Shown here in pieces: positions 47,637 through 64,000 of a stretch of DNA of 64,000 nucleotides. The notes under the pieces were generated by a model. The model did not search any database, had not been told where the DNA came from, and saw nothing but the letters and a program-made list of their open reading frames with translations. How positions within the stretch are numbered: position 1 is the stretch's first letter; each line of letters begins with the position of its first letter. This DNA comes from Gammaproteobacteria bacterium (GTDB taxonomy: Bacteria > Pseudomonadota > Gammaproteobacteria > Pseudomonadales > Pseudohongiellaceae), in assembly GCA_050486205.1 (NCBI GenBank), contig JBJHCW010000008.1:5219-69218 (forward strand), given 5' to 3'. A program made the translations under genes and the position numbers.

Positions 47637-48518
47637 TCAAAGAACAGGCGAGGGCAGCATTTCGCTCAGCACCCGCCGCAATTCCCGACGCCAGTGTTCG
47701 GGGTGACAGCCCAGCGCCTCAATCGTCGGCGTTTTGTCCAGTACCACACAAGGTGGTCGCTTGGCCGGCGTCGGATAGGCCGTGGTCGGAATGGCCCGGA
47801 TTGGCACCGCACGGTCCAGCAAACCCAGCGCCTGGGCCTCGTCCTGTATGGCCACGGCAAAATCATACCAGCTTGCCACACCCGCATCTGTCCAGTGCAT
47901 CACACCTGTGGGCTGCCGCGCCACGGCGGCGCCAATACAAGGCAAAAGGCCAAAGGTGGACGTGGGCGTGCCCCACTGGTCATCCACCACACTGAGTTCG
48001 TCGCGCTCGCGCATCAGGCGCAGCATGGTGCTGACAAAATTGTGGCCATACGGTGAATGCACCCAGGCAGTGCGCAGCACCAGGCTGTTGGCTGGTGCCA
48101 GGTAACGCACATGCAGCTCGCCCTCAAGCTTGGTACGCCCGTAGATATTGACCGGATCGGGTTGGTCATCGGGGAGGTAGGGGCGGTGGTTGCGCCCGCA
48201 GAAAACGAAGTCGGTGGAGATCTGCAGCAGCCAGGCCTGATTGGCCGCCACCCAACGCGCCAGATACTTGGGTCCGAAGGCATTGACCTCACGCGCCACC
48301 AGGTCATCGGATTCGGCCGCGTCCACCGCCGTGTAGGCTGCGGCGTTGATGATGATATCCGGTTTCAGTGCGTCCAGCGTCTGGCTTACGGCCTGCTCAT
48401 CACGGATATCCAGCGCCGCCCTGTTCAGGGAAGTGAGTGCATACTTTTCCTGCAGATCACTTTCAGCAATGGTTTTGCCCAACTGCCCGTTGGCGCCCAG
48501 CAGAACAAGTTTTTTCAT
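47637..48518 (-). CDS. rfbD: dTDP-4-dehydrorhamnose reductase
   Basis: 293-aa ORF with a Rossmann N-terminus MKKLVLLGANGQLG and the RmlD pattern YGRTKLEGE. It overlaps the rfbC stop by 1 nt. Confidence 0.88.
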   Translation of the reverse strand: MKKLVLLGANGQLGKTIAESDLQEKYALTSLNRAALDIRDEQAVSQTLDALKPDIIINAAAYTAVDAAESDDLVAREVNAFGPKYLARWVAANQAWLLQISTDFVFCGRNHRPYLPDDQPDPVNIYGRTKLEGELHVRYLAPANSLVLRTAWVHSPYGHNFVSTMLRLMRERDELSVVDDQWGTPTSTFGLLPCIGAAVARQPTGVMHWTDAGVASWYDFAVAIQDEAQALGLLDRAVPIRAIPTTAYPTPAKRPPCVVLDKTPTIEALGCHPEHWRRELRRVLSEMLPSPVL

Positions 48519-49090
48519 CAGCGCGTCACCTGACAGGCCGGTGCATCCTGCAGCAACAGGCCATCACGATCCTTGTCCGACAGCACCGGCTCACCGGCGC
48601 CAGGCACCAGTGGCCAGGCAATGGCCAGCGCCGGATCATCCCAGCGAAGTGAATACTCATCGCCCGGGGCGTAATAGTCAGTGCATTTGTACACCATCTC
48701 GGCGCTTTCACTGATCACGTAGAAACCATGGGCAAATCCGGGCGGCACCCAGAGCTGGCGCCGATTCTCTGCCGACAGATGCACCCCGACACTCTGTCCG
48801 CGGGTGGGCGAGTCGGCCCGCATGTCCACCGCCACGTCATAGATCTCGCCGGCCACCACGCGCACCAGTTTGCCCTGCGGCTGTTGTAGCTGATAGTGCA
48901 GCCCGCGAAGAATACCCTGGCTGGAGCGGCTGTGGTTGTCCTGCACAAACTGCACGCCCGGTGCGTGGTCATCGAACCAGCTCTGGCGAAAGGTTTCCAT
49001 AAAAAAACCACGGTGGTCGCCGTGAACAGTGGGTTCCAGGAGGAGGATATCGGGCAGGGAGGTCGGGGTGATTTTCATTGAAGGAAGCAT
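48518..49090 (-). CDS. rfbC: dTDP-4-dehydrorhamnose 3,5-epimerase
   Basis: About 186-190-aa ORF with cupin motifs GDHRGFFMETF, LRGLHYQ and FAHGF. The start is ATG 49090 or 49078. Confidence 0.9.
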   Translation of the reverse strand: MLPSMKITPTSLPDILLLEPTVHGDHRGFFMETFRQSWFDDHAPGVQFVQDNHSRSSQGILRGLHYQLQQPQGKLVRVVAGEIYDVAVDMRADSPTRGQSVGVHLSAENRRQLWVPPGFAHGFYVISESAEMVYKCTDYYAPGDEYSLRWDDPALAIAWPLVPGAGEPVLSDKDRDGLLLQDAPACQVTR

Positions 49091-49141
49091 TCCAGATCTG
49101 CTGCTAAACTTTCTGTGTGCGCCATATTATAAGGACATAGT

Positions 49142-49402
49142 ATGCAAAAGCACGGGAAGATCCTCGAGAAAATCCTGCGTGGAGAATCTGATGCCAATAT
49201 CAGGTTCCCGGACATGCGAATGGTGTTACATCACCTGGGGTTCAGTGAGCGAATGCGCGGTAGCCACCACAGTTTCAGAAGGTCCGGCATAGCAGAGAAA
49301 ATAAACATCCAACACAGTGGCAAACTCGTCAAACCCTATCAGGTAAAGCAGGTACGTGCCATAATTCGCAAGTACCGACTGCAGGTAAATTGCCATGTTT
49401 AA
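49142..49402 (+). CDS. hicA: HicA-family mRNA interferase toxin
   Basis: 86-aa ORF with the YcfA/HicA pattern (LHHLGFSERMRGSHHSF ... VKPYQVKQVRAII). It overlaps hicB by 8 nt. Confidence 0.78.
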   Translation: MQKHGKILEKILRGESDANIRFPDMRMVLHHLGFSERMRGSHHSFRRSGIAEKINIQHSGKLVKPYQVKQVRAIIRKYRLQVNCHV

Positions 49403-49607
49403 GTACGAATTGCTCATCTATTGGAGCGAAGAGGATAGTGCCTTCATTGCGGATGTGCCAGAGCTACCAGGCTGTATGGCACATGGGGAATCCCCTGTCG
49501 AGGCTGTCAGGAATGCTGAACAGGCAATTCAGTTATGGATAGATACCGCGAGAGAGTTCGGTGATCCCGTGCCCGAACCCGGCCAGCCGCCTCTAAGGCA
49601 GGTGTGA
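49395..49607 (+). CDS. hicB: HicB-family antitoxin (UPF0150 fold)
   Basis: 70-aa ORF with YWSEEDSAFIADVPELPGCMAHGESPVEAV, typical of the HicB N-terminal domain. Confidence 0.78.
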   Translation: MFKYELLIYWSEEDSAFIADVPELPGCMAHGESPVEAVRNAEQAIQLWIDTAREFGDPVPEPGQPPLRQV

Positions 49608-49617
49608 CCTGAATTGC

Positions 49618-50484
49618 TCACCTGAGCAATTTCAGCAGATACTGGCCGTAACCACTTTTGGCCAGCGGTTTTGCCAGGCGGCGCAGCTGTTCAGCGCTGA
49701 TATAACCCTGATGGAAGGCAATCTCCTCCGGGCAGGCAATCTTCAGGCCCTGCCGCTCCTCCAGTACACGAATGAAATTGGCCGCATCCAGCAGTGACTG
49801 CACCGTGCCGGTATCCAGCCAGGCCGTGCCGCGGCTGAACAGTTCCACCTGCAGCGTGCCGCGCGCCAGATAGGCTTTGTTCACATCGGTTATTTCCAGC
49901 TCACCGCGCGCCGAGGGGCGTATGCCACGGGCAATCTCCACCACGTCATTGTCATACAGGTACAGGCCGGTGACCGCGTAGTTGGACTTGGGCTTTTGCG
50001 GCTTCTCCTCCAGATCAATGGCGGTGTTGTTGTCATCCAGGGCCACAACACCATAACGCTCGGGATCATTGACGTAGTAAGCAAACACTGTGGCGCCACT
50101 CTCCTGTTTCAGCGCCTGCTGCAGCTTTTCCTCCAGCGAGTTGCCATAGAAGATGTTGTCCCCCAGGATCAGACAGACGCTGTCGCCGCCAATGAACGAC
50201 TCACCAATCAGAAAGGCCTGCGCCAGACCTTCGGGTCGGGGTTGTTCGGCATACTGCAGATTCAGACCCCACTGGCTGCCATTACCCAGCAGGTGCTGGT
50301 AAAGCGTCAGGTCACCGGGTGTGGTGATAATGAGTATGTCCCGAATACCCGCCTGCATCAGCGTGCACAGTGGGTAGTAGATCATGGGTTTGTCGTACAC
50401 CGGCATCAACTGCTTGCTCACCGAGACGGTCATGGGGTGCAGGCGGCTGCCGGTGCCTCCGGCAAGGATGATTCCCTTGGTCAT
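49618..50484 (-). CDS. rfbA: glucose-1-phosphate thymidylyltransferase
   Basis: 288-aa ORF with [16 protein letters not shown] and a conserved RmlA core ([22 protein letters not shown]). Confidence 0.94.
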
Positions 50485-50501
50485 GCTTCAGTGACGCCTT
50501 G

Positions 50502-51506
50502 TCATGGGTTGTTGCGGGTATTGTTGCCGTCACGCATGTGATCGGCCTTGTGGGCAACACCCAGCGCATCCAGTATATCCGGCAGTGCGCTGTAGAATGT
50601 TGCGCCCGGATTATAACGCAGATACTCACGGCTTGTAGTGTCGTCCACAAAGCTGCCCTGGGTGAGCGCTCGATAACTTCGCAGCCCCGGTGCATTCTTC
50701 AGGCGGAAGATCCGGCCCAGCAGTTCCATACCCAGCGCGGCCAGATACAGGCCGGGCGCCGGCATGGACCAGTCCGGCTGACCCATGTCAAAGGCCTCGC
50801 GTATGGCGCCTTCAACGGACTTGACCGTGTAGCGGGTGCCATCGGTCACCGGATAGATCGGTGTGAACACTTGCTCACTGGCATCTTCCTGTAATCTTTG
50901 AGCGGCACACACAACCGCCTGACACAGGTCGTGCACACCAATCAGCGACAGTGGCTGATCGGTTCTGGGCAGCGGCGGGAAAAACCCGCGGCGTATCATA
51001 CGAATCATGCTCAGCAGATTGCCTTTCATCTGCGGGCCATAGACATTGACCGGGCGCAGTATGCAGACACGAATGTCGCCGGCCCGATGCGCAGCCAGCA
51101 ACAGCTGCTCGGCGTCGTATTTTGACTGACCGTAAGCGGTGCGCGGCTGATCATGTGCCGGATCGGCCTTGATGCTGCTCATGAAGATAAAGTGTTTCGC
51201 GCCCTGGCTGCAGGCCGCGCGCAGCAGGTTTGCCGTGCCGTCCACATTCACTGCTCGCAGCCTGTTGTCATCGGCATGGTTGATGTGGGCATAAGCTGCC
51301 AGGTGGAACACCGTGTCTACCCCCTCGCAGAGCGGCAGCAGTGAATCGGGCTCCAGCAGATCGGCACCTTTTGCTGCGCTGCTGCGGTTCAGTGTACGCA
51401 CCTGGTAGCCCTGTTCGTGCAAGCTGGCCAGCAGGTGGTGACCAATAAAACCGGTGCTGCCAGTGAGCAGGGCTGTACGGTCTGGTGTGGCGGTTGTGTC
51501 ATTCAT
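50502..51506 (-). CDS. NAD-dependent epimerase/dehydratase-family SDR
   Basis: 334-aa ORF with LLTGSTGFIGHHL and the catalytic YGQSKYDAE (YxxxK). It does not look like a canonical RmlB. Confidence 0.8.
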   Translation of the reverse strand: MNDTTATPDRTALLTGSTGFIGHHLLASLHEQGYQVRTLNRSSAAKGADLLEPDSLLPLCEGVDTVFHLAAYAHINHADDNRLRAVNVDGTANLLRAACSQGAKHFIFMSSIKADPAHDQPRTAYGQSKYDAEQLLLAAHRAGDIRVCILRPVNVYGPQMKGNLLSMIRMIRRGFFPPLPRTDQPLSLIGVHDLCQAVVCAAQRLQEDASEQVFTPIYPVTDGTRYTVKSVEGAIREAFDMGQPDWSMPAPGLYLAALGMELLGRIFRLKNAPGLRSYRALTQGSFVDDTTSREYLRYNPGATFYSALPDILDALGVAHKADHMRDGNNTRNNP

Positions 51507-51772
51507 TGCTTGAGCACCTTGTAAACATGCTTGCGGTGCGCCACTTTGACCACAATAACAATCAGTTCAGCATCGCGTATTTCATAAAGGATACGATACA
51601 CGCCCTGGCGAATACGGTATTTCTCCTGCGCAGACAATTTCTCCACTCCCGCGGGTCGTGGATTGTCTGTCAATTGCTGGATGCGCTTGAGAATACGCGT
51701 AAGGTCCTGACGAGGCAGCCGGCGCAGGTCCCGGGCTACCGAGCGCCGGAAGCCGACCTCATAGACTGCCAT
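51503..51772 (-). CDS. RelE/ParE-family toxin
   Basis: 89-aa ORF with a typical RelE/ParE pattern (LRRLPRQDLTRILKRIQQLTDNPRP ... YRIRQGVYRILYEI..ELIVIVVKVAHR). Its stop overlaps the SDR start (ATGA 51503-51506). Confidence 0.78.
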   Translation of the reverse strand: MAVYEVGFRRSVARDLRRLPRQDLTRILKRIQQLTDNPRPAGVEKLSAQEKYRIRQGVYRILYEIRDAELIVIVVKVAHRKHVYKVLKQ

Positions 51773-51992
51773 GCTTCTTCAGATCATCCAGCAAGGCTTC
51801 ATAACTCATTACCGGCTCTGCAATCCGTTGATCAAATGCTGCCAGGTCTTCCTGATCCTCGGCCAGCACACGCCGCACGGCATCATTCACAATATCAGAC
51901 ACCGATCGCTCGGACTGCGCCGCTTTCAAACGCAATGCAGCATGCAAACCTGGTTCAAAATAGACCGTTGCGCGCTTTGACTTTCCGCTCAT
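51759..51992 (-). CDS. ribbon-helix-helix (CopG-like) antitoxin
   Basis: 77-aa ORF with an N-terminal RHH segment (KRATVYFEPGLHAALRLKAAQSERSVSDIVNDAV). It overlaps the toxin by 14 nt. Confidence 0.7.
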   Translation of the reverse strand: MSGKSKRATVYFEPGLHAALRLKAAQSERSVSDIVNDAVRRVLAEDQEDLAAFDQRIAEPVMSYEALLDDLKKHGSL

Positions 51993-52025
51993 GTGTTGCT
52001 CTCATGTAAGGGTTTTCGAAAAAGA

Positions 52026-52060
52026 CATGACGTCAAGTCACTATAGCGCCATGACGTCAA
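52026..52060. promoter_or_regulatory. duplicated CATGACGTCAA boxes (each with palindrome TGACGTCA), candidate TA operator
   Basis: Identical 11-mers at 52026-52036 and 52050-52060, 24 nt apart, 34-68 nt upstream of the RHH antitoxin ATG. Confidence 0.5.
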
Positions 52061-52070
52061 TCTGTCCATT

Positions 52071-52901
52071 TCAGAACCAGCGCCAGCCATGGCTGCTGAA
52101 AAACCGTATGGCCGAGCGGCCGAACATCAGGATATGCCGCAGTCCCTTGCGCGCGGTGTTGCCGCCAAGGTGGGTGATACGCATGGCTGGCACAAAGGTC
52201 AGGCTGCCGTGTTGGTGGGCGCGCAGCGACAGGTCAAAGTCCTCAAAGTACAGGAAGTAGCGCGGATCAAATCCGTCCAGGGCGCGCAGTGCACTGCTGC
52301 GCCACAACATACAACAGCCACTGATGATGGGAATGTTGTCGGTGGGTTCGCTGTGGCTGAGCGCCTGCATGCTGTAACGGGCCAGGCGGCGCTGGAACAG
52401 CCTGCGCACAAAGCCTGGCGCAAAGCCGCGCAGCAACAGGTCCAGTACCGATGGGTATTGCTTGCAGGCTGATTCGGGTTCACCATCGCCGTTGCTGATG
52501 GCAGGCGCCACCGCCACGGTTTCCGGCCGGCTCTGCAGCCAGGCCAGTCCCTGCACCAGGGCATCAGGCTGCAGATAAACGTCGGGGTTGAGTACCAGAT
52601 GGTACTCGCAGGTGGTTTCGGTGATGGCAAGATTGTGTCCGCGCCCATAACCGATGTTGCCGTGGCCGGTTCTGGTCAGCAGTTCCAGGCTGGAAAGATC
52701 AACGGACTCAGGCAGACTGTCCAACAGGGCATGGTTGTCACTGTTGTTGATCAGGTACAGCGAAGCCTTGTTCAGGACGCCTGCCATACGCGCCTCGTTC
52801 GCGGCTTTCTCGAGACAGGCAAGCACTCGCTCAAGCACGGGCTGGTTCAGTTCGTGGACAACAATGGAGATGCTGAGATCGGTGGGTGGGGTAGGTGACA
52901 T
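52071..52901 (-). CDS. family 2 glycosyltransferase
   Basis: 276-aa ORF with the GT-A N-terminus ISIVVHE and the GT2 segment DPRYFLYFEDFDLSLR. Confidence 0.8.
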   Translation of the reverse strand: MSPTPPTDLSISIVVHELNQPVLERVLACLEKAANEARMAGVLNKASLYLINNSDNHALLDSLPESVDLSSLELLTRTGHGNIGYGRGHNLAITETTCEYHLVLNPDVYLQPDALVQGLAWLQSRPETVAVAPAISNGDGEPESACKQYPSVLDLLLRGFAPGFVRRLFQRRLARYSMQALSHSEPTDNIPIISGCCMLWRSSALRALDGFDPRYFLYFEDFDLSLRAHQHGSLTFVPAMRITHLGGNTARKGLRHILMFGRSAIRFFSSHGWRWF

Positions 52902-54719: not shown

Positions 54720-55514
54720 TCAGTTCAGCTTGCCAAAATCGATGTTGCCACCATCATCATTGAGAAAGTCGAGATCCAGCGCAAGGCCTGCCGCCTTGTT
54801 CTGGGCGTCACGCCTGGCAACAAACTGCGGAATACGACCAAGAAGCTGAATATTCTGCATGGATATCAATTGGCAATAGGCCAGCTGTAAAGTGTTGGAG
54901 TGACGCAGCCGCAGAAACTGCTTGTCATCCAGGGCAATCAGTTTGTCCTCGTCAATCTTGTAAAGACCCTTGATTTCTTGCTCGCCGCTGTCCAGACGCA
55001 CCTTCAGTTTCCAGGGCACCAGCAGGCCCAGCTCATTCAGCAGATTTGCCATTTTGGCCGTTTCTATCCGCGACTTCTCTACTTTACCAAGAATTTCCAT
55101 GAGGCCTTGAACAACTTCAGTGGGTGTGCCGTCCTCATCAAAAAATGCCTGGTCTTGTTCATCACTGCTCATCAACCCGCTGGTCTCATCAAAACACAAT
55201 GCCAGCTGTCCTTCTTTCTCAGTGGGCAACATCCTGAATGGGTAGGTGCGGATGATTGCAGGTTTGTACGCACCAAGCCATTTGCCGTCATGGTCAATAA
55301 AAACGTTCTTGTCCGAACCCAGGGATGTCAGTGCCACAAGATTGAACTGATCGTCATCGGGCACAAAACACAGAGGCAGATTGATAGTAGCAGCATGCAG
55401 TTCATCGGCCACGATGGGGAGCACCTGCTCCTTGCCAAAGAGTGTATAGGAGGTATTCGGCTTCCAGAACCGGCCTTTGTGCGTTTCCTGGCTGATCACG
55501 GTGTAACGGGTCAT
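54720..55514 (-). CDS. SapC-family protein
   Basis: 264-aa ORF. The N-terminal half (HKGRFWKP...LPIVADELHAATINLPLCF...FNLVALTSL) matches my recollection of the SapC family pattern. It lies downstream of the S-layer-like gene. Confidence 0.65.
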   Translation of the reverse strand: MTRYTVISQETHKGRFWKPNTSYTLFGKEQVLPIVADELHAATINLPLCFVPDDDQFNLVALTSLGSDKNVFIDHDGKWLGAYKPAIIRTYPFRMLPTEKEGQLALCFDETSGLMSSDEQDQAFFDEDGTPTEVVQGLMEILGKVEKSRIETAKMANLLNELGLLVPWKLKVRLDSGEQEIKGLYKIDEDKLIALDDKQFLRLRHSNTLQLAYCQLISMQNIQLLGRIPQFVARRDAQNKAAGLALDLDFLNDDGGNIDFGKLN

Positions 55515-55545: not shown

Positions 55546-55585
55546 TTAAAAACGAAAACCCCGCCCCTGGATCAGGAGCGGGGTT
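55546..55585 (-). terminator. rho-independent terminator of the S-layer-like gene
   Basis: 13-bp stem AACCCCGCCCCTG / CAGGAGCGGGGTT with one mismatch (55557-55585), followed on the minus strand by TTCGTTTTT. Confidence 0.8.
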
Positions 55586-55627: not shown

Positions 55628-58315
55628 TCAGGCGAAGACGTAGAGCTCGCCGGCGGCAATGGCGTCCAGACCGCCAACGTCTGTCATACCGGCCAGCTTG
55701 ATCAACACACCATCGTTGACACCATCTTCTCCGTAGATGTAGCTGTTACCTACATACTCGAAGACCACGGCTTCGTTGGCACCAGCCGCAGCGGCGGCGA
55801 TGTCCACTGCCTGCTCCAGTGTGGACGGACCTGCACCCAGGAAGGTCAACAAGCCGTCTTCGATTTGCCAAGTAGCACCATCCGTGCCGTCTCCGGCCAC
55901 ATCAACACCCGTGGCTTCGATGACATCGAACCCGGCCTGGGCAGTTTTGCCTTTGGCATCTGCCTGGCCAAGACCTTCAATCACTCGGTGTGCAGCAATG
56001 ACAGCAGCAGAACCGGTTGCCACAGACTGTGCACCTATAACGTCATCGCCAGAGCCCACTTTCAGTGTGCCAGTGGCAGCGATGTCATCCAGCTCAATGG
56101 TCAGTGCGCCCGTCATGGCGGATGCGTCAACAGATGCGAAGGCGTTGCCGCTTGAAGTAAGCGTCAGCGCCTGGGAACCGTCAACAGTCACTACCTTCGC
56201 ACCAGTACCACCTGTGTTGATGTCGGCCACGTTGCTGGCTTTGGCACCACCGGAAGTGATGTTGTACGTATTCGCCGCGTTAGCTGCTGTCAGATTGATG
56301 GTCTGAACATTGTCGGCAGCCACTGAGTTCGCATGCGTGTTATTGCTGTCAAACACCAGGTTCAAGGTTGTCGCGTTGGTGGCGTTCAGCGTTGCAGTGT
56401 TCGCATTGGCAGCTGCTGTAGCGCTGTCGGTATCCATGGTGATCGTAAGAGCACCGGCAGTCTTCTGTGTCAGGCTAAGCGTAGGACCTGCCATGTCACC
56501 TGTAATGCGGAAGCCTACACCGGCACCAACATTCTGCAACGTAGAGGCGCCAACCAATGCGGCAGAACCGATCAGTTCACCCACGGTATTGTTCTGGGCC
56601 AGGATGTCCATGTCCAGATTACCGTTCATGCCAGCGACATCAAAGCGCTGGAAGTTGCTGAACACACCCGCATTGGCTGAACCCACACCAGACAGACCCA
56701 GTGTGTTGGTACCACTGCCGCCGCTGATGGAGTCGCCTGCACGTACAACACCGCCGCCGAAGGCGAATGTGTCATTGCCAGCACCCAGATCAACATTCAA
56801 TGTACCAGTAGCACCACGAGCCACCAGGGTTACAGTGTCGTTGCCGGCACCTGTGTTGATGGTGGTCGCACCAGTGCTTGTTCCATTGACCGTTACAGTG
56901 TCATTACCGCCGCCGGACGTTACGTTGGTAGCACCCGCACCAGCGGTGTTGACAGTAATGGTGTTGTTGCCGGCACCCGCGTTCAGGTTGGCAGCAACAG
57001 TTGCTGTTGTGCCAGTGGAGATGGTCACCGTGTCATTGCCGGAACCCGTATTGATAGTGCGCAGGTTTGCAGCAGCAGTGGTCTGACCACCAAAGGTGAT
57101 CGCACCGGTGCTGTCACCCGCGTTCAGGGTATGCAGTGCAGCGCCTGTCAGCGTCAGCGTTGTTGCAACCGCTGTGTTGACGTTGGCAGCAGTCTGGGCT
57201 CCGCCTGTTTCTAGGTGGGCAGCCAGCGTAGCACCCGTTGCCATGCTACCGGAGATGTTGAGCGCATTGGTTGCAGCAACACCCTCGGCATTCAGGGTAT
57301 TCGCACCTGATACACCGCTCAGGGCTACATTGACTGTAGCGCCGGTACCGGTGACCGTGTTGTTCATTGCGGTTATGCCGTTAAAGCCGGCAGTCACAGA
57401 CGCACCGAGGCCAGAGACGTCACTCGCCCAGCCGAACTGCCAAACCTGCTGGGCACCCTCAAAACGGCTGGCTACAACAGTTGCGCCATCTGTGGTGAAA
57501 GGTGTGGTGCCATCCAGATTACGGATGTTGATGGTTTCTATGTTTTTGATGGTGGCGGAATTCGGCAGCGTTTCGTTGCGCTCGGTAGTACCATCAAACT
57601 CGCTATAGATGTTGAGAGTATCATTTCCAGCACCACCATCCAGCTGATCAAAAGCGGTCAGTGTCGATGCAGGGTCACCAGCAGCATTGATGGTCAACGC
57701 GTTGAACGTATCGTTACCGTCACCGCCCACAAACTCGTCCGGACCTGTTGTCAGGCGGAAAGTCTGTCCGGGAACGGATGTTGTACCGTCAGCCTTGGCC
57801 TTTCCGGCTGTAACACTGGCTTCAGTTTCGTCAACGTCGGCAATCACGTCCTGCAGGTCGGCCAGGCTGGCACCGTCTTTCTGCAGTGTGACGGAGAAGT
57901 ACTCGGCAACCTCTACACGATTGGCGAACGCCTGGGAAGCATCGCCCCAGTTCTCGTCGTCTGCCGGTACGTCGCGCAGCGCCTGGATAGCGGCAATGAT
58001 GACCTGGGCTTTTGTGGCACCGGCATTCATTTCAGCTGTCAGCGTGTCGATGGCCCACTGACGATCCTCTGCAGCGACCTTGCCGCCAACAACGTTATCA
58101 ACGAAGCGGGTAACAAACTCTTGATTGGTCAGGAAAGCAGGGTACTTGTTGGTAAAGATCGGGTTTTGTGTAAGGTTTTCGGTCAGCGACTCGAATGTAC
58201 CACCCGCCTGGAAGTACGCAGCCAGTTCAGCAAGATTTGTCTTGCCGGGCGCTGCGCCCCATACGGCAACCGACAGCGCGATGATATCGGTTCTATCTTG
58301 GACAGTGAAAGACAT
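55628..58315 (-). CDS. RTX-like, RsaA-type surface-layer / type I secretion substrate protein
   Basis: 895-aa Gly/Thr/Ala/Asn-rich ORF with no Cys and no signal peptide. It has seven GGxGNDT-type repeats (GGDGNDTFN, GGAGNDTLN, GSGNDTVT, GGGNDTVT, GAGNDTVT, GAGNDTFA) and a hydrophobic acidic C-terminus (..IKLAGMTDVGGLDAIAAGELYVFA). There is a strong RBS (GGAG, 6 nt) and a dedicated terminator. Confidence 0.7.
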   Translation of the reverse strand: MSFTVQDRTDIIALSVAVWGAAPGKTNLAELAAYFQAGGTFESLTENLTQNPIFTNKYPAFLTNQEFVTRFVDNVVGGKVAAEDRQWAIDTLTAEMNAGATKAQVIIAAIQALRDVPADDENWGDASQAFANRVEVAEYFSVTLQKDGASLADLQDVIADVDETEASVTAGKAKADGTTSVPGQTFRLTTGPDEFVGGDGNDTFNALTINAAGDPASTLTAFDQLDGGAGNDTLNIYSEFDGTTERNETLPNSATIKNIETINIRNLDGTTPFTTDGATVVASRFEGAQQVWQFGWASDVSGLGASVTAGFNGITAMNNTVTGTGATVNVALSGVSGANTLNAEGVAATNALNISGSMATGATLAAHLETGGAQTAANVNTAVATTLTLTGAALHTLNAGDSTGAITFGGQTTAAANLRTINTGSGNDTVTISTGTTATVAANLNAGAGNNTITVNTAGAGATNVTSGGGNDTVTVNGTSTGATTINTGAGNDTVTLVARGATGTLNVDLGAGNDTFAFGGGVVRAGDSISGGSGTNTLGLSGVGSANAGVFSNFQRFDVAGMNGNLDMDILAQNNTVGELIGSAALVGASTLQNVGAGVGFRITGDMAGPTLSLTQKTAGALTITMDTDSATAAANANTATLNATNATTLNLVFDSNNTHANSVAADNVQTINLTAANAANTYNITSGGAKASNVADINTGGTGAKVVTVDGSQALTLTSSGNAFASVDASAMTGALTIELDDIAATGTLKVGSGDDVIGAQSVATGSAAVIAAHRVIEGLGQADAKGKTAQAGFDVIEATGVDVAGDGTDGATWQIEDGLLTFLGAGPSTLEQAVDIAAAAAGANEAVVFEYVGNSYIYGEDGVNDGVLIKLAGMTDVGGLDAIAAGELYVFA

Positions 58316-58433
58316 GTAAAACTCCTTTAATTTTTAAGGTTTTGCTCTTTTCATTTCAGACAAGCAATTGCTGACTGATGAATACTATTTGCCACGATCG
58401 CCGGTAATACTACACCCGGCCTGATCCGGACGG

Positions 58434-58449
58434 TGTGATCACAGTCACA
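58434..58449. promoter_or_regulatory. perfect CRP-type box TGTGA-TCACAG-TCACA upstream of the S-layer-like gene
   Basis: Read directly. Both half-sites match the TGTGA-N6-TCACA consensus, 119-134 nt upstream of ATG 58315. Confidence 0.5.
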
Positions 58450-58624: not shown

Positions 58625-60013
58625 TTAAAAACTGTAGCGCATTCCCAGCTCGACGGCGGTATCATTGCTGCTGAAAAGAACAATATTGCTGCGCTGGCGT
58701 TGTCGGTAGAGGTTTATCAGCAGGATACCGCCCAGAACCGTGGGTTGACGGTACTGGAGCTGGACAAAACTGCGGCTCAGGGCACGACGCTGGCCGTTGG
58801 CCAGCAATTCGCTGTATATGTCCCGATCCTCGAGTCGGGTATGTCCGGCCTGGGCCGCCAGCACACCGGCCAGAACGGGTCGCTGCCAGTCCATGCGAGC
58901 CTGCCAGCCCACCCTGTCACCACCGGGGCGGCCACCTCGAACGGCAAAACTGTTCAGCAGGCCCAGCTCGGCTGTATAGACGGCCCCGGAACCCTCATTC
59001 CGGCAGTGCAAGCCGCCTGCATTGCGGGCCTCCACCGTATTCAGATTGCCGTTCCCCTGGTGGTAGTGCTGGTACTGCGCGGCGACCGTATAATACGGCG
59101 CGCAACTGTGCTCGTTCTCCACCTGGTACCGGGCGTTTGTTTCAAAAGCGCTGAACAGCGGGTTTCCACCCACGGCCAGGTGGGCCAGGGCGCCTCCCAG
59201 TTCCCAACTGTGATCACGCGCCGGGCGCAGCCAGGCGTATCTTGTATTGATCTGCGTAATGTCCGAACGCGTGTCCTCACTGATCCTGCCACTGATTTCG
59301 GCCAGAAAGTTATGACTGTGACCGGGGGCAAACTGCGTGAAATGACCAGCGAGCCTGACGTTGCCATAAGCGCCGCTGATCGGCAGGAACTCCGGGCTCA
59401 GTTCCAGATCCACAGGTTCCCCGGATAAGGTGAGGGTTATTCGATTGCTTAATGGTCCGCGGTTAAGATTGTTGTCAAAACCAGCCAGAAGGTCCAATTC
59501 GCCACCCAGTCGCCGGGTCATGCTCTGCCATTCCGCCTGACGGCGCCCCAGCATGATCTGCAATGCTTCAGGCAAATCCGGACGGGCCAGTACCTGGCGA
59601 TTCATGTCCAGTGCAGGGAACAGTTGCCCCTGCAGAAACAGCGCCTGTGCATAGTCAATCTGGGCAGCACCGTAATCCGGGTCAGTCAGCAGCGCACGCT
59701 CCAGTGACTCAATGGCTGCAGATACCTGCCCGCTGTTCAGCTGTGCCGCACCGTAAAGCGAAAAATACTCGGCACTGTCCAGACACAGGGGCATCAGCCG
59801 GGAAAGCTCGCGCTCCAGCACAAACCAGTTGGTCTGCTCATCGGGGTAATAGGCGCCAAGATCCGGGCAGGAAAGACGCTCATCAGCATGTCCGGCCAGG
59901 CTGCCCATCAGCAGGCTGGCACACAACACCCAGCCAGACCAAAGCAACAGTCCCGACCTGACAGGCCGGGACTGGCCGGAATCGGAGGTCGGCACGGGAT
60001 GCGATTTCAACAT
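58625..60013 (-). CDS. outer-membrane beta-barrel protein with N-terminal TPR region (Slam/DUF560-like)
   Basis: Signal peptide (..SLAGHA), two or more TPR-like repeats (AIESLERALLTDPDYGAAQIDYAQALF), a C-terminal half with alternating beta pattern, and terminal VELGMRYSF. ATG 60013 is preferred. Confidence 0.6.
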   Translation of the reverse strand: MLKSHPVPTSDSGQSRPVRSGLLLWSGWVLCASLLMGSLAGHADERLSCPDLGAYYPDEQTNWFVLERELSRLMPLCLDSAEYFSLYGAAQLNSGQVSAAIESLERALLTDPDYGAAQIDYAQALFLQGQLFPALDMNRQVLARPDLPEALQIMLGRRQAEWQSMTRRLGGELDLLAGFDNNLNRGPLSNRITLTLSGEPVDLELSPEFLPISGAYGNVRLAGHFTQFAPGHSHNFLAEISGRISEDTRSDITQINTRYAWLRPARDHSWELGGALAHLAVGGNPLFSAFETNARYQVENEHSCAPYYTVAAQYQHYHQGNGNLNTVEARNAGGLHCRNEGSGAVYTAELGLLNSFAVRGGRPGGDRVGWQARMDWQRPVLAGVLAAQAGHTRLEDRDIYSELLANGQRRALSRSFVQLQYRQPTVLGGILLINLYRQRQRSNIVLFSSNDTAVELGMRYSF

Positions 60014-60109
60014 GCGGGGATTATCAAGAATTGGCCTGCTCCGTGCAACTACGATTCCCTGAAACGTGACACCGTGCAAGCACACCTGTCTATCAGGCGC
60101 TCAGCCGTG

Positions 60110-62134
60110 TCAGGCTGCCGGCCCCTGAGAACGCCCGCCCACCAAAACCTTAAGGGCAGGGCTGCCGGTTCTGGTTTGATCGGGGCTGGTCGCATTGTCG
60201 GCAATGGCCAGCGAATACAGAGTCTGAGGCACTCTCAGACCGGGTAGCAGATAACGCCCCTGGGACTGCAGGCTCTGATCACCGGCAAGTCGGGCCGCGC
60301 CTTCACCCACCAATACTGGCAGGGCAAGCTCAGCGGTCATTTCCTGCACACGCAGGGCAATAGTCACAGTATCACCCAACAGGGCATGGCTGCGCCGCTG
60401 GGCCGGGCCTATGGAGCCCATCAGCACAGGCCCCTGTTCCACACCGATGCCAAGACCCAGTGGCTCCAGTCCTTCAGGCGCGCGGGCTGGCAGCAGATCA
60501 CGCTGCATGACAATCTGCATTTCCCGGGCAGCGTCCAGCGCCTGATGGACACCTGCGGAGTCGCCACTCCATACTGCCAGCAGACCATCACCCTTGAATT
60601 CATGGACGCGACCGTCATGACGCTCGATGATAGCTGTGGCCAACAGCAGAAAGCTGTGCAGCAACGTAGCAGATTCCTCTGGCGGTCGCGCCTCGGTGTA
60701 GGCAGAAAAATTACGCAGGTCAGCGCTCAAGAGTGTCACTTCCAGCCGACGGGCATTGATATCCGAGCTGGGCACACTGTAGGCGATCTCACGGGCGACG
60801 TCCGATGGCAGATAACTGTTCAGGTTGCTGTAAACACGATCATGCTCCATTCGAACGCGGCTGTGCTCCAGCAATAACAGCAGGGTACCGGCCAGCACAC
60901 TGAACAGGCTCGGCACCAGCCAACCCAGCCAGATATTTGCCGAACCAAGCAGCACAGCATGCAGCACCAGCATGGAAACCGGCAGCAGCACGGCTGCCAC
61001 GGGCAGGCCATACATGGCCAGACGCTGGCGGAAACTGGCCAGCACCAGCAGAACCACACCTGCTATACCGGCAAGCATCCACATCAACAGGGGTGCGCCG
61101 CGCGGGGTCCACGGCATGTCAGCATCCAGCAGGCTGCTGATAATACGTGCCTGCAGCTCGACACCAGGTGTGATGCCGCTGTGAGGTGTAGGCACGAAGT
61201 CACGCAGCCCGAAGGCCGTCGCGCCGATCAGCGTCCAGGTATTGTCCAGCATGGCCGGATCGAAATTGCCATCCAGCACGTCAGCCGCGGATATTGCCTG
61301 ATAGGCGTCTGGCAGGTTCCTGTAGGAGACTCTGATATTGCCGTTGGCATCCAGCGGAATTGAAAGACCCGGATAGGCGTCCAGCTCAAGCGTTGAGGCC
61401 GGTGCCAGCAGGGACACACCGGGCTGCACGCGTGCGTGCCACTCATTGCCATCCGGCTGCGCACGCACAGCCGTAAGCAAGGCGCTGATGGCAAGTGCCG
61501 GGTACGCCTCACCCTCCACGCAAATATAGGCGGGCACATGACGGACACCGCCATCGCTGGCAACAATGGGGGTGATATGACCCTTGGGCAGACCGGCAAA
61601 TCCGCTGTTATTGGCAAGATAATTGTGAGTCGCGGGCACACCGGCACAACTGACACCTGTCAACGCATGTGTCATGGTGCCAGCCTGTATGCTCTGGCGC
61701 GCACCGATCACCGGCACCTGAGCCAACACACCGTTACCGGCCGTCAGGGCCGCCATGAATTGCTGGTCCCCTTCACGTTGCTCAGGGAATACGACATCGT
61801 AAATCTGCAGCTGCGCGCCAGCATCGGTCAGGGCCGTGGAGAGTGCTGCCATGGTTTCTCGCGACCAGGGCCAGGGGCCAATGCGGGCCAGACTTCGCTC
61901 GTCAATGGCAATCAGGGTCAATCGCTGCTCGGGAATCGATTCTGCGCCCAGTTTCCAGGCTTCACTACCTACACGCTCCTCAAGCAAACGTAGCTGGCTT
62001 CCAAAAACCAGCAGCAGAACAACAGTCAGCAAAGCGGCCACCAGCAGCGTCACTAGCCGTGCCAACGCCGGTGAAAGACGCAAGGTCAACACCAGCGGGC
62101 CGGACAGACCGCGAGAGGCGGACGGCAGTTTCAT
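60110..62134 (-). CDS. CHASE2-domain sensor fused to class III adenylate/guanylate cyclase
   Basis: 674-aa ORF with an N-terminal TM, a roughly 300-aa periplasmic domain, three TM segments, and a cyclase core (VTLLSADLRNFSAY ... EFKGDGLLAVW ... LLGDTVTIALRVQ). Its ATG overlaps the FecR-like stop (ATGA 62131-62134). Confidence 0.82.
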   Translation of the reverse strand: MKLPSASRGLSGPLVLTLRLSPALARLVTLLVAALLTVVLLLVFGSQLRLLEERVGSEAWKLGAESIPEQRLTLIAIDERSLARIGPWPWSRETMAALSTALTDAGAQLQIYDVVFPEQREGDQQFMAALTAGNGVLAQVPVIGARQSIQAGTMTHALTGVSCAGVPATHNYLANNSGFAGLPKGHITPIVASDGGVRHVPAYICVEGEAYPALAISALLTAVRAQPDGNEWHARVQPGVSLLAPASTLELDAYPGLSIPLDANGNIRVSYRNLPDAYQAISAADVLDGNFDPAMLDNTWTLIGATAFGLRDFVPTPHSGITPGVELQARIISSLLDADMPWTPRGAPLLMWMLAGIAGVVLLVLASFRQRLAMYGLPVAAVLLPVSMLVLHAVLLGSANIWLGWLVPSLFSVLAGTLLLLLEHSRVRMEHDRVYSNLNSYLPSDVAREIAYSVPSSDINARRLEVTLLSADLRNFSAYTEARPPEESATLLHSFLLLATAIIERHDGRVHEFKGDGLLAVWSGDSAGVHQALDAAREMQIVMQRDLLPARAPEGLEPLGLGIGVEQGPVLMGSIGPAQRRSHALLGDTVTIALRVQEMTAELALPVLVGEGAARLAGDQSLQSQGRYLLPGLRVPQTLYSLAIADNATSPDQTRTGSPALKVLVGGRSQGPAA

Positions 62135-63570
62135 TGAGAAGCGCCCCAGAGAGTAATGCCCTGAATCAGGCCACTGCCGAGTTGTTGATCAAAGAAATAA
62201 CCGGCTTCCTTGCCATCCGTGCTGACCGCGCCAGCGATATTCTTGCCCGCACTTCGATTATGGAAGTACCCTCCTGAGAATATCCGCCCCGTAGACGTGA
62301 AATCGAAACGCCCGGTGGCTCTGGAGTCCAGGTTCAGGGTGGTGGCGAAGGTGTTCTGGTCAAAATTGATGCGCAGGTCGCCACCCCTGACGGTCATGGC
62401 CTCTACGGTGCTCGCTCCATGATGGAAGGCCTGGGCGGCATCCAGCGTAAAGCCCACTTCGCCGAGACCCGCATCTACCCTTGCACCATCAGGCTCCTGG
62501 CGGAAGAGTCCGAAATTGGAATTGCCTACAGTGACCTCGCGGCCAGCTCGTGCATCCGAGTAAGCCACTGATATTCCAGGCACCGCCGGTTGGTCACCCG
62601 ATGCCCAGCGGCCCCAGATCAGCTGCCGCTCCCGCAGCGCCTCGGGCGCCAGGGCTGACGCCGGGAGTTTTGGCTGACGGCGAGCCTTGTCAGAGGCAAG
62701 CGCACGTATGGAAACTTCACGCATGGTGACTGATTCCTGATAAAGGTCAGACACTGCATCCTTGGCAATGGCGGCCTCATCCCCTTCACGCAACTCGTCC
62801 AGCTCACTGTCAATCAGCTCATGGAGCTCCTGCTCGGGTCGGGGGCGAAAAACCGGCTCGAGCTGGCCGTGCGCCACCTCGACAATCTGCATCGAACTGC
62901 CCGCCAGTTCGACTCCGCCGCTCAGGCAGGGACCCAGCGCACCCGCGACACAGCCGTCCGAATAAGGCGCGACCACAATCGAGCCTTCATTGACAAGAGC
63001 CCGGACATTGCGCGGGCTGGCGCTGACCACAAAATCTGTGCCACGCACACCAATGGCGGCAATGGGAGTGTCCAGGCGGAATCTGTCACGGGCAGCGCGA
63101 CCGGCGTCACCTGAAATTGACCGGGCTACACCTTCCACCAGTCGAAACTTGACTACCGACTGTTCGGGGCGATCGGCATTGTAGGCGTAGTCGGTTATTT
63201 CCAGGCGGCTGTTGGGCCGAACGCTGACCAGTGCCTGGTCCACAAACCGGATATGGACATGACCGTTGGCCTCAGTGATGATCTGGTCGCTGGCATGGAC
63301 CTGAGATCCAACCTTTACGGGCTTGCGGGAGCTGTCAGCGGCCTGCAGCCAGGCCTTGCCCAACAGCAGGCTGACTTCACCGACGCTGCCATGACCTGAA
63401 ACACCATGACTTTCCTCGGCCACCACCGGATTGCCTGCCAGGAGCAGAACGGTCAGGACAGCAAGAAGTTGTGAAGCGATGCCTGCACGCTTGGCGACAG
63501 GCTTGCTGGAGCTACCGTAACTGTGCATGTTGATGCCCCGGGCAGAAGTGAAATTTTGACTGGACAGCAT
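62131..63570 (-). CDS. FecR-domain periplasmic protein
   Basis: Signal peptide and a FecR-type beta-rich segment (GKAWLQAADSSRKPVKVGSQVHASDQIITEANGHVHIRFVDQALVSVRPNSRLEI). The alternative start ATG 63528 is equally plausible. Confidence 0.72.
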   Translation of the reverse strand: MLSSQNFTSARGINMHSYGSSSKPVAKRAGIASQLLAVLTVLLLAGNPVVAEESHGVSGHGSVGEVSLLLGKAWLQAADSSRKPVKVGSQVHASDQIITEANGHVHIRFVDQALVSVRPNSRLEITDYAYNADRPEQSVVKFRLVEGVARSISGDAGRAARDRFRLDTPIAAIGVRGTDFVVSASPRNVRALVNEGSIVVAPYSDGCVAGALGPCLSGGVELAGSSMQIVEVAHGQLEPVFRPRPEQELHELIDSELDELREGDEAAIAKDAVSDLYQESVTMREVSIRALASDKARRQPKLPASALAPEALRERQLIWGRWASGDQPAVPGISVAYSDARAGREVTVGNSNFGLFRQEPDGARVDAGLGEVGFTLDAAQAFHHGASTVEAMTVRGGDLRINFDQNTFATTLNLDSRATGRFDFTSTGRIFSGGYFHNRSAGKNIAGAVSTDGKEAGYFFDQQLGSGLIQGITLWGASQ

Positions 63571-63592
63571 AACCAGACCGGCGTCATCAGCC

Positions 63593-63608
63593 AGTGATTG
63601 CGGTCACA
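63593..63608. promoter_or_regulatory. CRP-like box AGTGA-TTGCGG-TCACA in the cyclase-operon / crp-like divergent spacer
   Basis: 9 of 10 half-site positions match TGTGA-N6-TCACA. It is 23 nt (or 65 nt) upstream of the FecR-like start. Confidence 0.4.
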
Positions 63609-63651
63609 CGAAAATCAGATATGCTCAAGAAGCCCTTGAGCAGCTCCTTGA

Positions 63652-63679
63652 TTGATATTCTACTTCAAGACTCTATAAT
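63652..63679 (+). promoter_or_regulatory. sigma70 promoter of the Crp-family gene
   Basis: -35 TTGATA (63652-63657), 16-nt spacer, and perfect -10 TATAAT (63674-63679), about 57 nt before ATG 63736. Confidence 0.55.
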
Positions 63680-63735
63680 CAGTCAGCATCCATGGATCCA
63701 GCTCTCCGCATGCCACTCCCGGGAATATTAAGCAC

Positions 63736-64000
63736 ATGCAGGTCACACCGGAGCTACTGAGCGCCTTTCCTTGCCTGAAACCACTACCTCATGCGACCTT
63801 GCTCCAGCTGGCACGCCATTGCAGCGTACAGCGCTTCGCGCGCAGAGCGGTGGTTCTTAATGCGGGTGTAAGAGAAGGCCACATCTGCTTTCTTTTTGAA
63901 GGCCATCTGCAGGGCGTGGATTTCACCATCGACGGCCGGGAAGTGGGGCTGTACTTTGTTGAGCCGGGCGATTTCTGTGGCGAGCTGGGGATTTTTGACA
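63736..64000 (+). CDS. Crp/Fnr-family cyclic-nucleotide-binding regulator, 3' end outside window
   Basis: My own translation from ATG 63736 is MQVTPELLSAFPCLKPLPHATLLQLARHCSVQRFARRAVVLNAGVREGHICFLFEGHLQGVDFTIDGREVGLYFVEPGDFCGELGIFD. The GDFxGELGxF beta-roll motif is typical of cNMP-binding domains. The frame stays open to the window edge. Confidence 0.75.
   Translation, partial: MQVTPELLSAFPCLKPLPHATLLQLARHCSVQRFARRAVVLNAGVREGHICFLFEGHLQGVDFTIDGREVGLYFVEPGDFCGELGIFD

Follow-up and report, generated by a model that had tools for sequence, protein, structure and literature searches.

A conserved cassette of FecR-domain, CHASE2-cyclase and outer-membrane barrel genes with a divergent Crp-family gene, a candidate trans-envelope signalling pathway of marine gammaproteobacteria

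A 64,000-nt stretch of DNA (the window) from a gammaproteobacterium of the Pseudohongiellaceae (assembly GCA_050486205.1, contig JBJHCW010000008.1, positions 5219 to 69218 of the forward strand) carries, towards its end, genes for a FecR-domain protein, a CHASE2 sensor joined to a class III nucleotidyl cyclase and an outer-membrane protein (OMP) composed of tetratricopeptide repeats (TPR) and a beta-barrel, with a Crp/Vfr-family regulator gene transcribed divergently from the three. This cassette is conserved in many marine gammaproteobacteria, among them the cultured Pseudohongiella nitratireducens SCS-49 (locus L086) and Gammaproteobacteria bacterium LSUCC0112 (L059). We consider it, with a probability of roughly 0.55, to be a four-gene signalling cassette of the same kind as the NsrA-CyaK/CyaD-Clr pathway of Sinorhizobium meliloti, in which the sensor modules have been split differently between proteins. 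The FecR-domain gene (62131-63570; open reading frame (ORF) of 479 aa), the CHASE2-cyclase gene (60110-62134; 674 aa) and the OMP gene (58625-60013; 462 aa counted from Met25, the ORF being extendable to a GTG at 60085) all lie on the minus strand, as an earlier reading made from the sequence alone had placed them. The overlap of the FecR stop and the cyclase start (ATGA, 62134-62131) and the gap of 96 nt between the cyclase stop at 60110 and the OMP ATG at 60013, both given in that sequence-only reading, were also seen when read directly from the sequence. The window holds the 5' part of the regulator gene (63736-64000, plus strand; 88 codons), which runs past the window end, and even this fragment matches Pfam cNMP_binding (29 bits, cut-off 27.5), confirming that a Crp-family gene diverges from the trio. 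On a contig from the same organism the full regulator is 233 aa long with both cNMP_binding and HTH_Crp_2, and its closest solved relatives are Vfr and CAP (E ~1e-16).

Conservation of the cassette was assessed by scanning one genome per species with an alignment of the OMP; a relative was found in 138 species, the best 80 loci were kept and genes in these 80 species loci were called with per-gene hidden Markov models (HMMs) built in this analysis. The cyclase gene is directly upstream of the OMP gene in 80/80 loci and, in every locus whose contig extends far enough, the FecR gene comes before the cyclase gene, so this gene arrangement is not due to chance. The divergent Crp gene is present in 76 of the 80. 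For distant OMP members, the locus context was looked up directly from the matches of a search of cluster representatives. In loci whose OMP shares 22-25% identity with that of the window the genes again run FecR, CHASE2-cyclase, OMP (5/5 loci), four of the five also having the divergent Crp gene, and in distant clades the cyclase and OMP reading frames overlap or abut. The Methyloprofundus plasmid AP023241 (L002:230-6960) encodes in succession Crp, FecR, cyclase (36.8% identical), repA and an OMP-family gene, the last annotated as 'hypothetical' and matching the OMP-family HMM at E=1e-51. Because distant clades and this plasmid carry the trio, it appears from these gene contexts to be an old, mobile unit. 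The three genes therefore co-occur beyond the genome in which the sequence-only reading had noticed them, and form a conserved unit together with the divergent Crp-family gene. The plasmid itself is of 42 kb and derives from a mussel-gill biofilm metagenome assembly, and the repA between its cyclase and OMP genes is a plasmid repA. A further 3.8-kb contig (CAMCRC010000121.1, L034), labelled as part of a Klebsiella pneumoniae metagenome-assembled genome, has a cyclase, an OMP and a CRP box of the Pseudohongiellaceae type and is probably a binning error.

The OMP has a signal peptide and Pfam TPR matches, and the corresponding protein in the public record is also of 462 aa. An AlphaFold model generated with 48 homologues (predicted local distance difference test (pLDDT) score 87, predicted template modelling score 0.76) contains TPR helices at aa 63-164, corresponding to approximately three TPR pairs, and a beta-barrel at aa 167-461 with 15-16 strands assigned by DSSP and a terminal Phe. 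The barrel is closed in this model, which strengthens what had earlier been a surmise. In a search of 1.84 billion cluster representatives the family comprised 1558 representatives at 50% identity at E<=1e-3 and 186 at E<=1e-30. When the barrel alone was compared with Pfam at E<=10 no family was matched, and no Pfam match to a TonB-dependent receptor was present in the OMP. The sequence-only reading had also referred the OMP to DUF560 (Slam; Pfam PF04575, SlipAM), an assignment that the sequences do not support: in SlipAM scans of 48 close and 48 distant members a single close member was matched, at E=0.12, and the family is absent from those listed for the distant members. Faint TPR_Slam matches do occur in the OMP family (best E=0.003). 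A terminator scan flagged 59948-59974 (minus strand), where a GC-rich hairpin of 12 bp precedes a stretch rich in T; this site is within the part of the OMP gene that encodes the signal peptide and, being inside the coding region, was rejected as a terminator.

Foldseek searches with the OMP model returned generic TPR-barrel and porin matches only, namely BcsC (2.7e-9), OmpG, CymA, PelB, AlgE and general porins. Such matches would suit a porin of the common sort or a channel that exports polysaccharide as BcsC, PgaA and PelB do, either one serving a surface island and standing outside signalling, and rhamnose-synthesis and glycosyltransferase genes are indeed found nearby, with a Wzm/Wzt transporter in relatives. 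However, the cyclase gene is immediately upstream of the OMP gene in all 80 close and all five distant loci whilst the flanking genes vary, no cognate synthase gene is adjacent and a plasmid has acquired the module as a whole, making an OMP unconnected with the cyclase highly improbable.

The FecR ORF matches Pfam FecR (PF04773) at E=2.1e-14 over aa 95-198 (62977-63288, minus strand), and the domain was matched by Pfam in 47/47 aligned homologues. The first ATG of the ORF (63570) sits within a conserved -10-like hexamer, TATGCT, and for this reason translation probably starts at the ATG at 63528 (Met15) to give a protein of 465 aa. A Sec signal peptide is predicted, read from the sequence as LLAVLTVLLLAGNPVVA/EE, and the protein was found to have no lipobox, no anti-sigma N-terminal domain and no transmembrane anchor. 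In the predicted structure the signal peptide is followed by the FecR sandwich, a low-confidence linker and a C-terminal beta domain (aa ~310-479; 62134-62643, minus strand; pLDDT >90) modelled as a barrel of the TbpB/fHbp/lipocalin type. When the FecR protein model was searched against the PDB with Foldseek the 14 best matches were without exception TbpB (E 4.5e-5 to 1e-3), with LbpB, fHbp and lipocalins ranking next, although template modelling (TM) scores of the C-terminal domain to TbpB are low (0.2-0.4) and those to lipocalins similar. Searching this domain alone against Pfam at E<=10 gave nothing useful. Its last-strand motif, EAGYxF...GxTLW, persists even in clades where OMP identity is down to 22-25%, and the barrel tracks the OMP: the OMP-bearing loci inspected all have the long form of the FecR protein, and three short FecR proteins (Ruegeria, SC52 and SMc02177) are without the C-terminal domain and come from loci without the OMP. 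Separately, the first beta-sandwich of the FecR protein (62977-63390) resembles the periplasmic anchoring domain of a Marinomonas ice-binding adhesin, 5ix9 (Foldseek TM 0.80, root-mean-square deviation 1.3 Å, 26% identity; profile E=9e-4), and matches NCBIfam retention_LapA at 33 bits, below the cut-off of 50. Type I-secreted adhesins are held in their TolC-like pore by modules of the retention_LapA type, and genes for type I secretion are located near the cassette.

The combination of a TPR-plus-barrel OMP with a neighbour ending in a TbpB-like barrel suggests a different pairing. Secretors of the type XI secretion system (T11SS) consist of periplasmic TPR and an outer-membrane barrel, and all of their known cargo, encoded by adjacent genes, ends in an eight-stranded TbpB-type barrel (bioRxiv 10.1101/2023.03.15.532718; PMC8406197). 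The OMP and the FecR protein could accordingly be a Slam-like secretor and its cargo, with the FecR protein or its C-terminal barrel exported to the surface, and the architecture, the gene adjacency, the ranking of TbpB, LbpB and fHbp as best structural matches, the co-occurrence of barrel and OMP in the loci inspected and the faint TPR_Slam matches are all consistent with this. The whole protein might then be outside, with no direct link to CHASE2, or the barrel might be displayed with the FecR domain remaining periplasmic, a variant that merges with the signalling cassette proposed here. We regard a secretor-cargo pair as possible but doubtful, given that PF04575 goes undetected in all but the one marginal case above, that Pfam TbpB_B_D is matched in 1/47 members of the FecR-protein family (E=0.1), that the TM-scores single out TbpB no better than lipocalins and that the supposed cargo has no lipobox. 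Furthermore, genes for FecR domains are paired with CHASE2 genes in many loci without such an OMP, which argues for a periplasmic role of the FecR domain.

The third protein of the trio matches CHASE2 (PF05226) at E=1.8e-41 over aa 37-357 (61064-62026, minus strand) and Guanylate_cyc (PF00211) at E=5.1e-10 over aa 465-632 (60239-60742, minus strand). The CHASE2 domain is predicted to be periplasmic because it is flanked by hydrophobic segments, and the closest solved relative of the class III catalytic domain is the adenylyl cyclase OaPAC (E=6e-21).

The sequence-only reading gave no transcriptional output for the system, and a predicted one is supplied by two conserved CRP-type boxes at class II spacing. 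With up to one mismatch allowed, TGTGA-N6-TCACA occurs at only two sites in the 64 kb. Box 1, TGTGACTGTGATCACA (58434-58449, minus strand), is the only perfect site in the window and is located between the OMP gene and the next gene, which follows the box, encodes an 895-aa repeat protein (55628-58315, minus strand) and is the probable target. Box 2, TGTGACCGCAATCACT (63593-63608, minus strand), has one mismatch and is located in the divergent crp/fecR intergenic region. Exactly 21 nt after box 1 is the -10-like hexamer TAGTAT (58407-58412, minus strand), and exactly 21 nt after box 2, at the head of the FecR-cyclase-OMP operon, is the TATGCT hexamer mentioned above (63566-63571, minus strand). 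Class II CRP promoters, for example E. coli galP1, have the site centred at approximately -41.5, 21 nt upstream of the -10 hexamer, and the same 21-nt spacing puts the centres of both boxes at approximately -41.5 relative to the inferred transcription start sites. A perfect box 1 (within 700 nt past the OMP stop) is present in 60 of the 77 species loci that extend far enough beyond the OMP gene, compared with nine perfect sites in 1.40 Mb of background from these loci; the eight loci in which the ORF after the OMP gene bears no relation to the 895-aa protein all lack the box, and a TATnCT-type hexamer is present at +21 in 54/61 loci. Similarly, box 2 with at most one mismatch is present in 74/76 species loci, with TAnnnT at +21 towards the FecR gene in 73/75. 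The recognition helix of the regulator, SRExVxR (R-E-x-x-x-R), is kept in 76/76 species, and the corresponding helix of E. coli CRP is also R-E-x-x-x-R. A sigma-70-like match, TTGATA-16-TATAAT (11/12; 63652-63679, plus strand), lies 5' of the crp-like gene and comes from a consensus scan only.

These observations can be combined in the following pathway. The OMP, with its barrel in the outer membrane and its TPR in the periplasm, and the exported FecR protein would together make up the outer portion of the sensor, the latter pairing with the OMP through its TbpB-like C-terminal barrel. The FecR domain would touch the periplasmic CHASE2 domain and so alter the activity of the cytoplasmic cyclase, and the nucleotide made, possibly not cyclic AMP (cAMP), would act on the Crp/Vfr-like regulator. 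The regulator would bind both boxes and activate the sensor operon, a positive feedback, as well as the adjacent repeat-protein gene, whose product would probably leave the cell through the PrtD/HlyD/TolC type I system, the genes of which are on the far side of the crp-like gene.

A number of features weigh against this pathway and the first concern its chemistry. Catalytic residues were mapped by alignment to OaPAC, CyaK and CyaD1. Of the six-residue set of canonical class III adenylate cyclases the window cyclase has the two metal-binding Asp and the catalytic Arg only. The adenine-specifying Lys is replaced by Glu (EFKGD), as in 79/80 species, and the second specificity position, Asp/Thr, by Ala, with Thr in many relatives; the transition-state Asn is Thr in the window protein and is found in 0/80 species, which have Thr, Ser, Ala or Gly. 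In the distant clades too the Lys is absent, and Thr stands for Asn wherever the motif was recovered. The specificity pair that the sequence-only reading had singled out for inspection (Lys/Asp versus Glu/Cys) is thus Glu/Ala, which is not that of a canonical adenylate cyclase, and the enzyme could have low activity or a different nucleotide product. In guanylate cyclases the Lys position is occupied by Glu. We know, however, of no characterised class III cyclase that the replacement of Asn would match, which argues against naming the product from the Glu alone. Similarly, the phosphate cassette of the regulator is GELGIFDNGPQPEYV, the 'RSA' of Vfr aligning to a gap, and the Arg-Ser, which corresponds to R82/S83 of E. 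coli CRP, is absent clade-wide, so that the known mode of cyclic-nucleotide binding may not apply to the regulator. The boxes could also be used by another Crp-family protein encoded elsewhere in the genome. The claim of the sequence-only reading that cAMP or cyclic GMP is the output, with a dedicated effector, is consequently not secure, the adenine Lys, the catalytic Asn and the regulator Arg-Ser all being absent.

The remaining feature concerns the model system. The OMP was considered as an orthologue of NsrA and rejected, a BLASTP match being confined to a TPR stretch (E=0.009) and an hhalign comparison of the family profile with NsrA giving a probability of 3.7%, again over the TPR only. 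BLASTP of the FecR protein against NsrA gave a match confined to an 'IRGTD' motif, the NsrA barrel alone gave nothing useful against Pfam at E<=10, and tblastn of the OMP against all plasmids gave no match and hence no BLAST-level relative on pSymB. The likeness of the OMP to NsrA therefore appears to be one of architecture, with no homology of the barrels detectable in these comparisons.

Taken further, the altered residues would allow the cassette to signal with no cyclic nucleotide at all, the cyclase being a pseudo-enzyme or making some other product and the regulator being ligand-independent or sensing a different molecule, with the genes linked in another way, for instance by envelope stress control of surface-layer synthesis. 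The Asn and Lys replacements reported for the members examined, the low Pfam cyclase score (39.7 bits, compared with 73.6 for CyaK) and the regulator cassette without Arg-Ser would fit this account. It is nevertheless unlikely in our judgement: both metal-binding Asp and the catalytic Arg are conserved, the near-invariance of the Glu suggests that a defined substrate has been selected for, as it has in guanylate cyclases, the regulator of a related, distant clade (L093) retains the canonical Pro-Arg-Ser, and pairing of cyclase with Crp-type regulator is the rule in S. meliloti.

The predicted target and its surroundings were compared between loci. The 895-aa protein is rich in Ala, Gly, Thr, Ser, Asn, Val and Asp with repeated GxGNDT motifs, and had no match in Pfam, NCBIfam or PDB sequences. 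Its homologues, of 720-2406 aa, follow the OMP gene in most loci, are conserved over the N-terminal 150-270 aa and mostly consist to 70-80% of these same seven residues, and the counterparts in two loci (L006 and L095) have HemolysinCabind. Genes for type I secretion were located beyond the crp-like gene, outside the window, on the contig from the same organism (L005:4491-8986), with scores of 746 bits for a PrtD-type ATP-binding cassette (ABC) protein (TIGR01842, cut-off 510), 384 for HlyD (TIGR01843, cut-off 209) and 208 for a TolC-like protein (TIGR01844), just under the cut-off of 225; the ABC/HlyD/TolC trio is beside the crp-like gene in approximately 70/80 species loci. Based on its composition, the GxGxD motifs, the relatives with HemolysinCabind and the adjoining secretion genes, the 895-aa protein is probably a type I-secreted surface-layer or adhesin-like protein, a candidate of S-layer-like or RTX-like type. 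A strong intrinsic-terminator-like hairpin with a 13-bp stem and a T run (55557-55585, minus strand; terminator scan) lies 3' of its gene, followed by a SapC-family gene (54720-55514, minus strand; Pfam SapC E=2.9e-61), and a SapC-like ORF is present 3-9 kb downstream of the OMP gene in approximately 45/80 species loci. With the 895-aa protein gene, the SapC gene and the PrtD/HlyD/TolC genes on its flanks, the cassette appears to be set in a locus for the secretion of a surface-layer protein or adhesin, conserved in approximately 70 species. Further into the window are genes for dTDP-rhamnose synthesis (NTP_transferase, dTDP_sugar_isom and RmlD), an epimerase and a family 2 glycosyltransferase (47637-52901, minus strand) and for a 509-aa Peptidase_M10 protein of the matrixin/serralysin type (45429-46958, minus strand), possibly another substrate of type I secretion. 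As judged from these dTDP-rhamnose, glycosyltransferase and Peptidase_M10 genes, the end of the window around the cassette is a predicted cell-surface island.

A more speculative scheme, which we think improbable as a whole, joins several of the elements above. The TPR-barrel OMP and the TbpB-like barrel would be a secretor and its cargo, akin to those of type XI secretion but converted into a signalling wire across the outer membrane, the FecR domain would be periplasmic and gate CHASE2, the Glu/Thr cyclase would make a nucleotide other than cAMP and a Crp-family protein with a remodelled pocket would read it. Were this so, the cell surface would display the small barrel or have it inserted as a plug, and the state of the cell's surface layer, or a ligand from outside, would be sensed and would act back on the sensor operon and the neighbouring surface-protein gene.

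The ligands and partners of CHASE2 domains are little covered in the searchable literature, where the S. meliloti system is the only one studied experimentally. The cassette described here offers a second version of such a system, compact and widely conserved, with delimited candidate partners in the OMP, the FecR protein with its extra barrel and the cyclase. Two promoters of the class II CRP type are its predicted read-out, specified to the nucleotide, which would make reporter assays straightforward and makes CHASE2 signalling testable outside rhizobia. It would link signalling of the cyclic-nucleotide type to a predicted type I-secreted surface protein. The proteins of this large clade are named 'adenylate cyclases' and 'cAMP receptor proteins', default names against which their key residues argue.

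Amongst known systems the closest is that of S. meliloti. There, the CHASE2 cyclases CyaD1, CyaD2 and CyaK raise cAMP on a plant signal and act through the Crp-like Clr, and the outer-membrane barrel protein NsrA is required for signal perception by all three (PMC7529298, PMC13001267); once CHASE2 is removed, a CyaD1 construct produces cAMP constitutively (PMC5498481). The trans-envelope route into a CHASE2 cyclase that was postulated from the sequence thus has an experimental precedent in NsrA. We retrieved nsrA from pSymB, where it encodes 1219 aa with FecR (E=2.3e-15, aa 85-179), TPR (aa ~397-606) and a C-terminal barrel; its stop overlaps the start of cyaK (CyaK CHASE2 E=1.6e-37), which mirrors the FecR/cyclase overlap in the window. 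The cyaD1 locus has the order clr, cyaD1, FecR-family gene, Sel1-repeat gene and phosphodiesterase gene, so that both the regulator gene and a FecR-domain gene adjoin cyaD1. The Clr target smc02178 (L001:8757-9218), annotated as Sel1-repeat (TPR-like), is the gene between the FecR-family and phosphodiesterase genes, and the cyaD1 locus is thus also one of FecR plus a TPR-like protein. Common to the two systems are therefore an inner-membrane CHASE2 class III cyclase and adjacent coding for FecR, TPR and barrel. They differ in that the three modules form one chain in NsrA but are here on two proteins whose genes flank the cyclase gene, the FecR protein bearing a TbpB-like barrel and the OMP the TPR and barrel, and there is no homology past the domain level (BLASTP E ~0.01, hhalign TPR only). 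CyaK and CyaD1 have the canonical Lys and Asn and Clr has Arg-Ser, unlike the proteins described here; the Clr recognition helix is SRPKVNR, whereas the motif here is of the E. coli type, TGTGA-N6-TCACA; and the predicted target here, unlike in the NsrA system, is the neighbouring gene for a large, secreted-type repeat protein. Plasmids of Ruegeria, of Methylocystis (where the FecR protein is NsrA-like and of 1221 aa) and of Rhodobacteraceae SC52 likewise have a FecR gene immediately upstream of one for a CHASE2 cyclase. At least three arrangements of the sensor modules FecR, TPR and barrel exist, namely the fusion seen in NsrA, the division between two proteins found in the cassette, and FecR without the other two.

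Other relatives are more distant. Campylobacterota clusters of CHASE2-cyclase, phosphodiesterase, FecR and TPR genes were proposed to form one pathway and to have spread horizontally (Mo et al., mBio 2022, PMC9239204), and that paper cites the NsrA study for a model in which modules of the extracytoplasmic function (ECF) type control a membrane cAMP enzyme; these clusters, described by gene neighbourhood alone and compared here by description, include a phosphodiesterase, none of which was seen in the cassette. The Burkholderia 'BiofilmReg' operon and P. aeruginosa PA4035/PA4036 (PMC5192318) likewise have a gene for a periplasmic FecR-domain protein directly upstream of a CHASE2 sensor gene, but with LysM on the FecR protein, a CHASE2 histidine kinase and response regulator as output and no TPR-barrel OMP, and since they too pair the two domains, FecR-CHASE2 would seem to be a general partnership. 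Type XI/Slam loci resemble the cassette in the TPR-plus-barrel OMP and perhaps in a neighbour whose product ends in a TbpB-like barrel; they differ from the cassette in that PF04575 is undetected here, the 'cargo' has a FecR domain and no lipobox and the operon is that of a cyclase, typical Slam loci having TonB-dependent uptake genes. The FecA-FecR-FecI likeness drawn in the sequence-only reading comes down to a FecR-type periplasmic domain and the idea of a signal from outer to inner membrane: there is no TonB-dependent transducer and no cytoplasmic anti-sigma domain or anchor on the FecR protein, no ECF sigma factor gene was present in the gene lists of the loci looked up and the predicted output is a nucleotidyl cyclase, so the cassette is not a strict relative. 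In essence the trio has largely been described already, as NsrA-cyaK and as the Campylobacterota clusters. New in the present cassette are the split modules with a TbpB-like barrel on the FecR protein, the non-canonical cyclase and regulator, and the two boxes at class II spacing.

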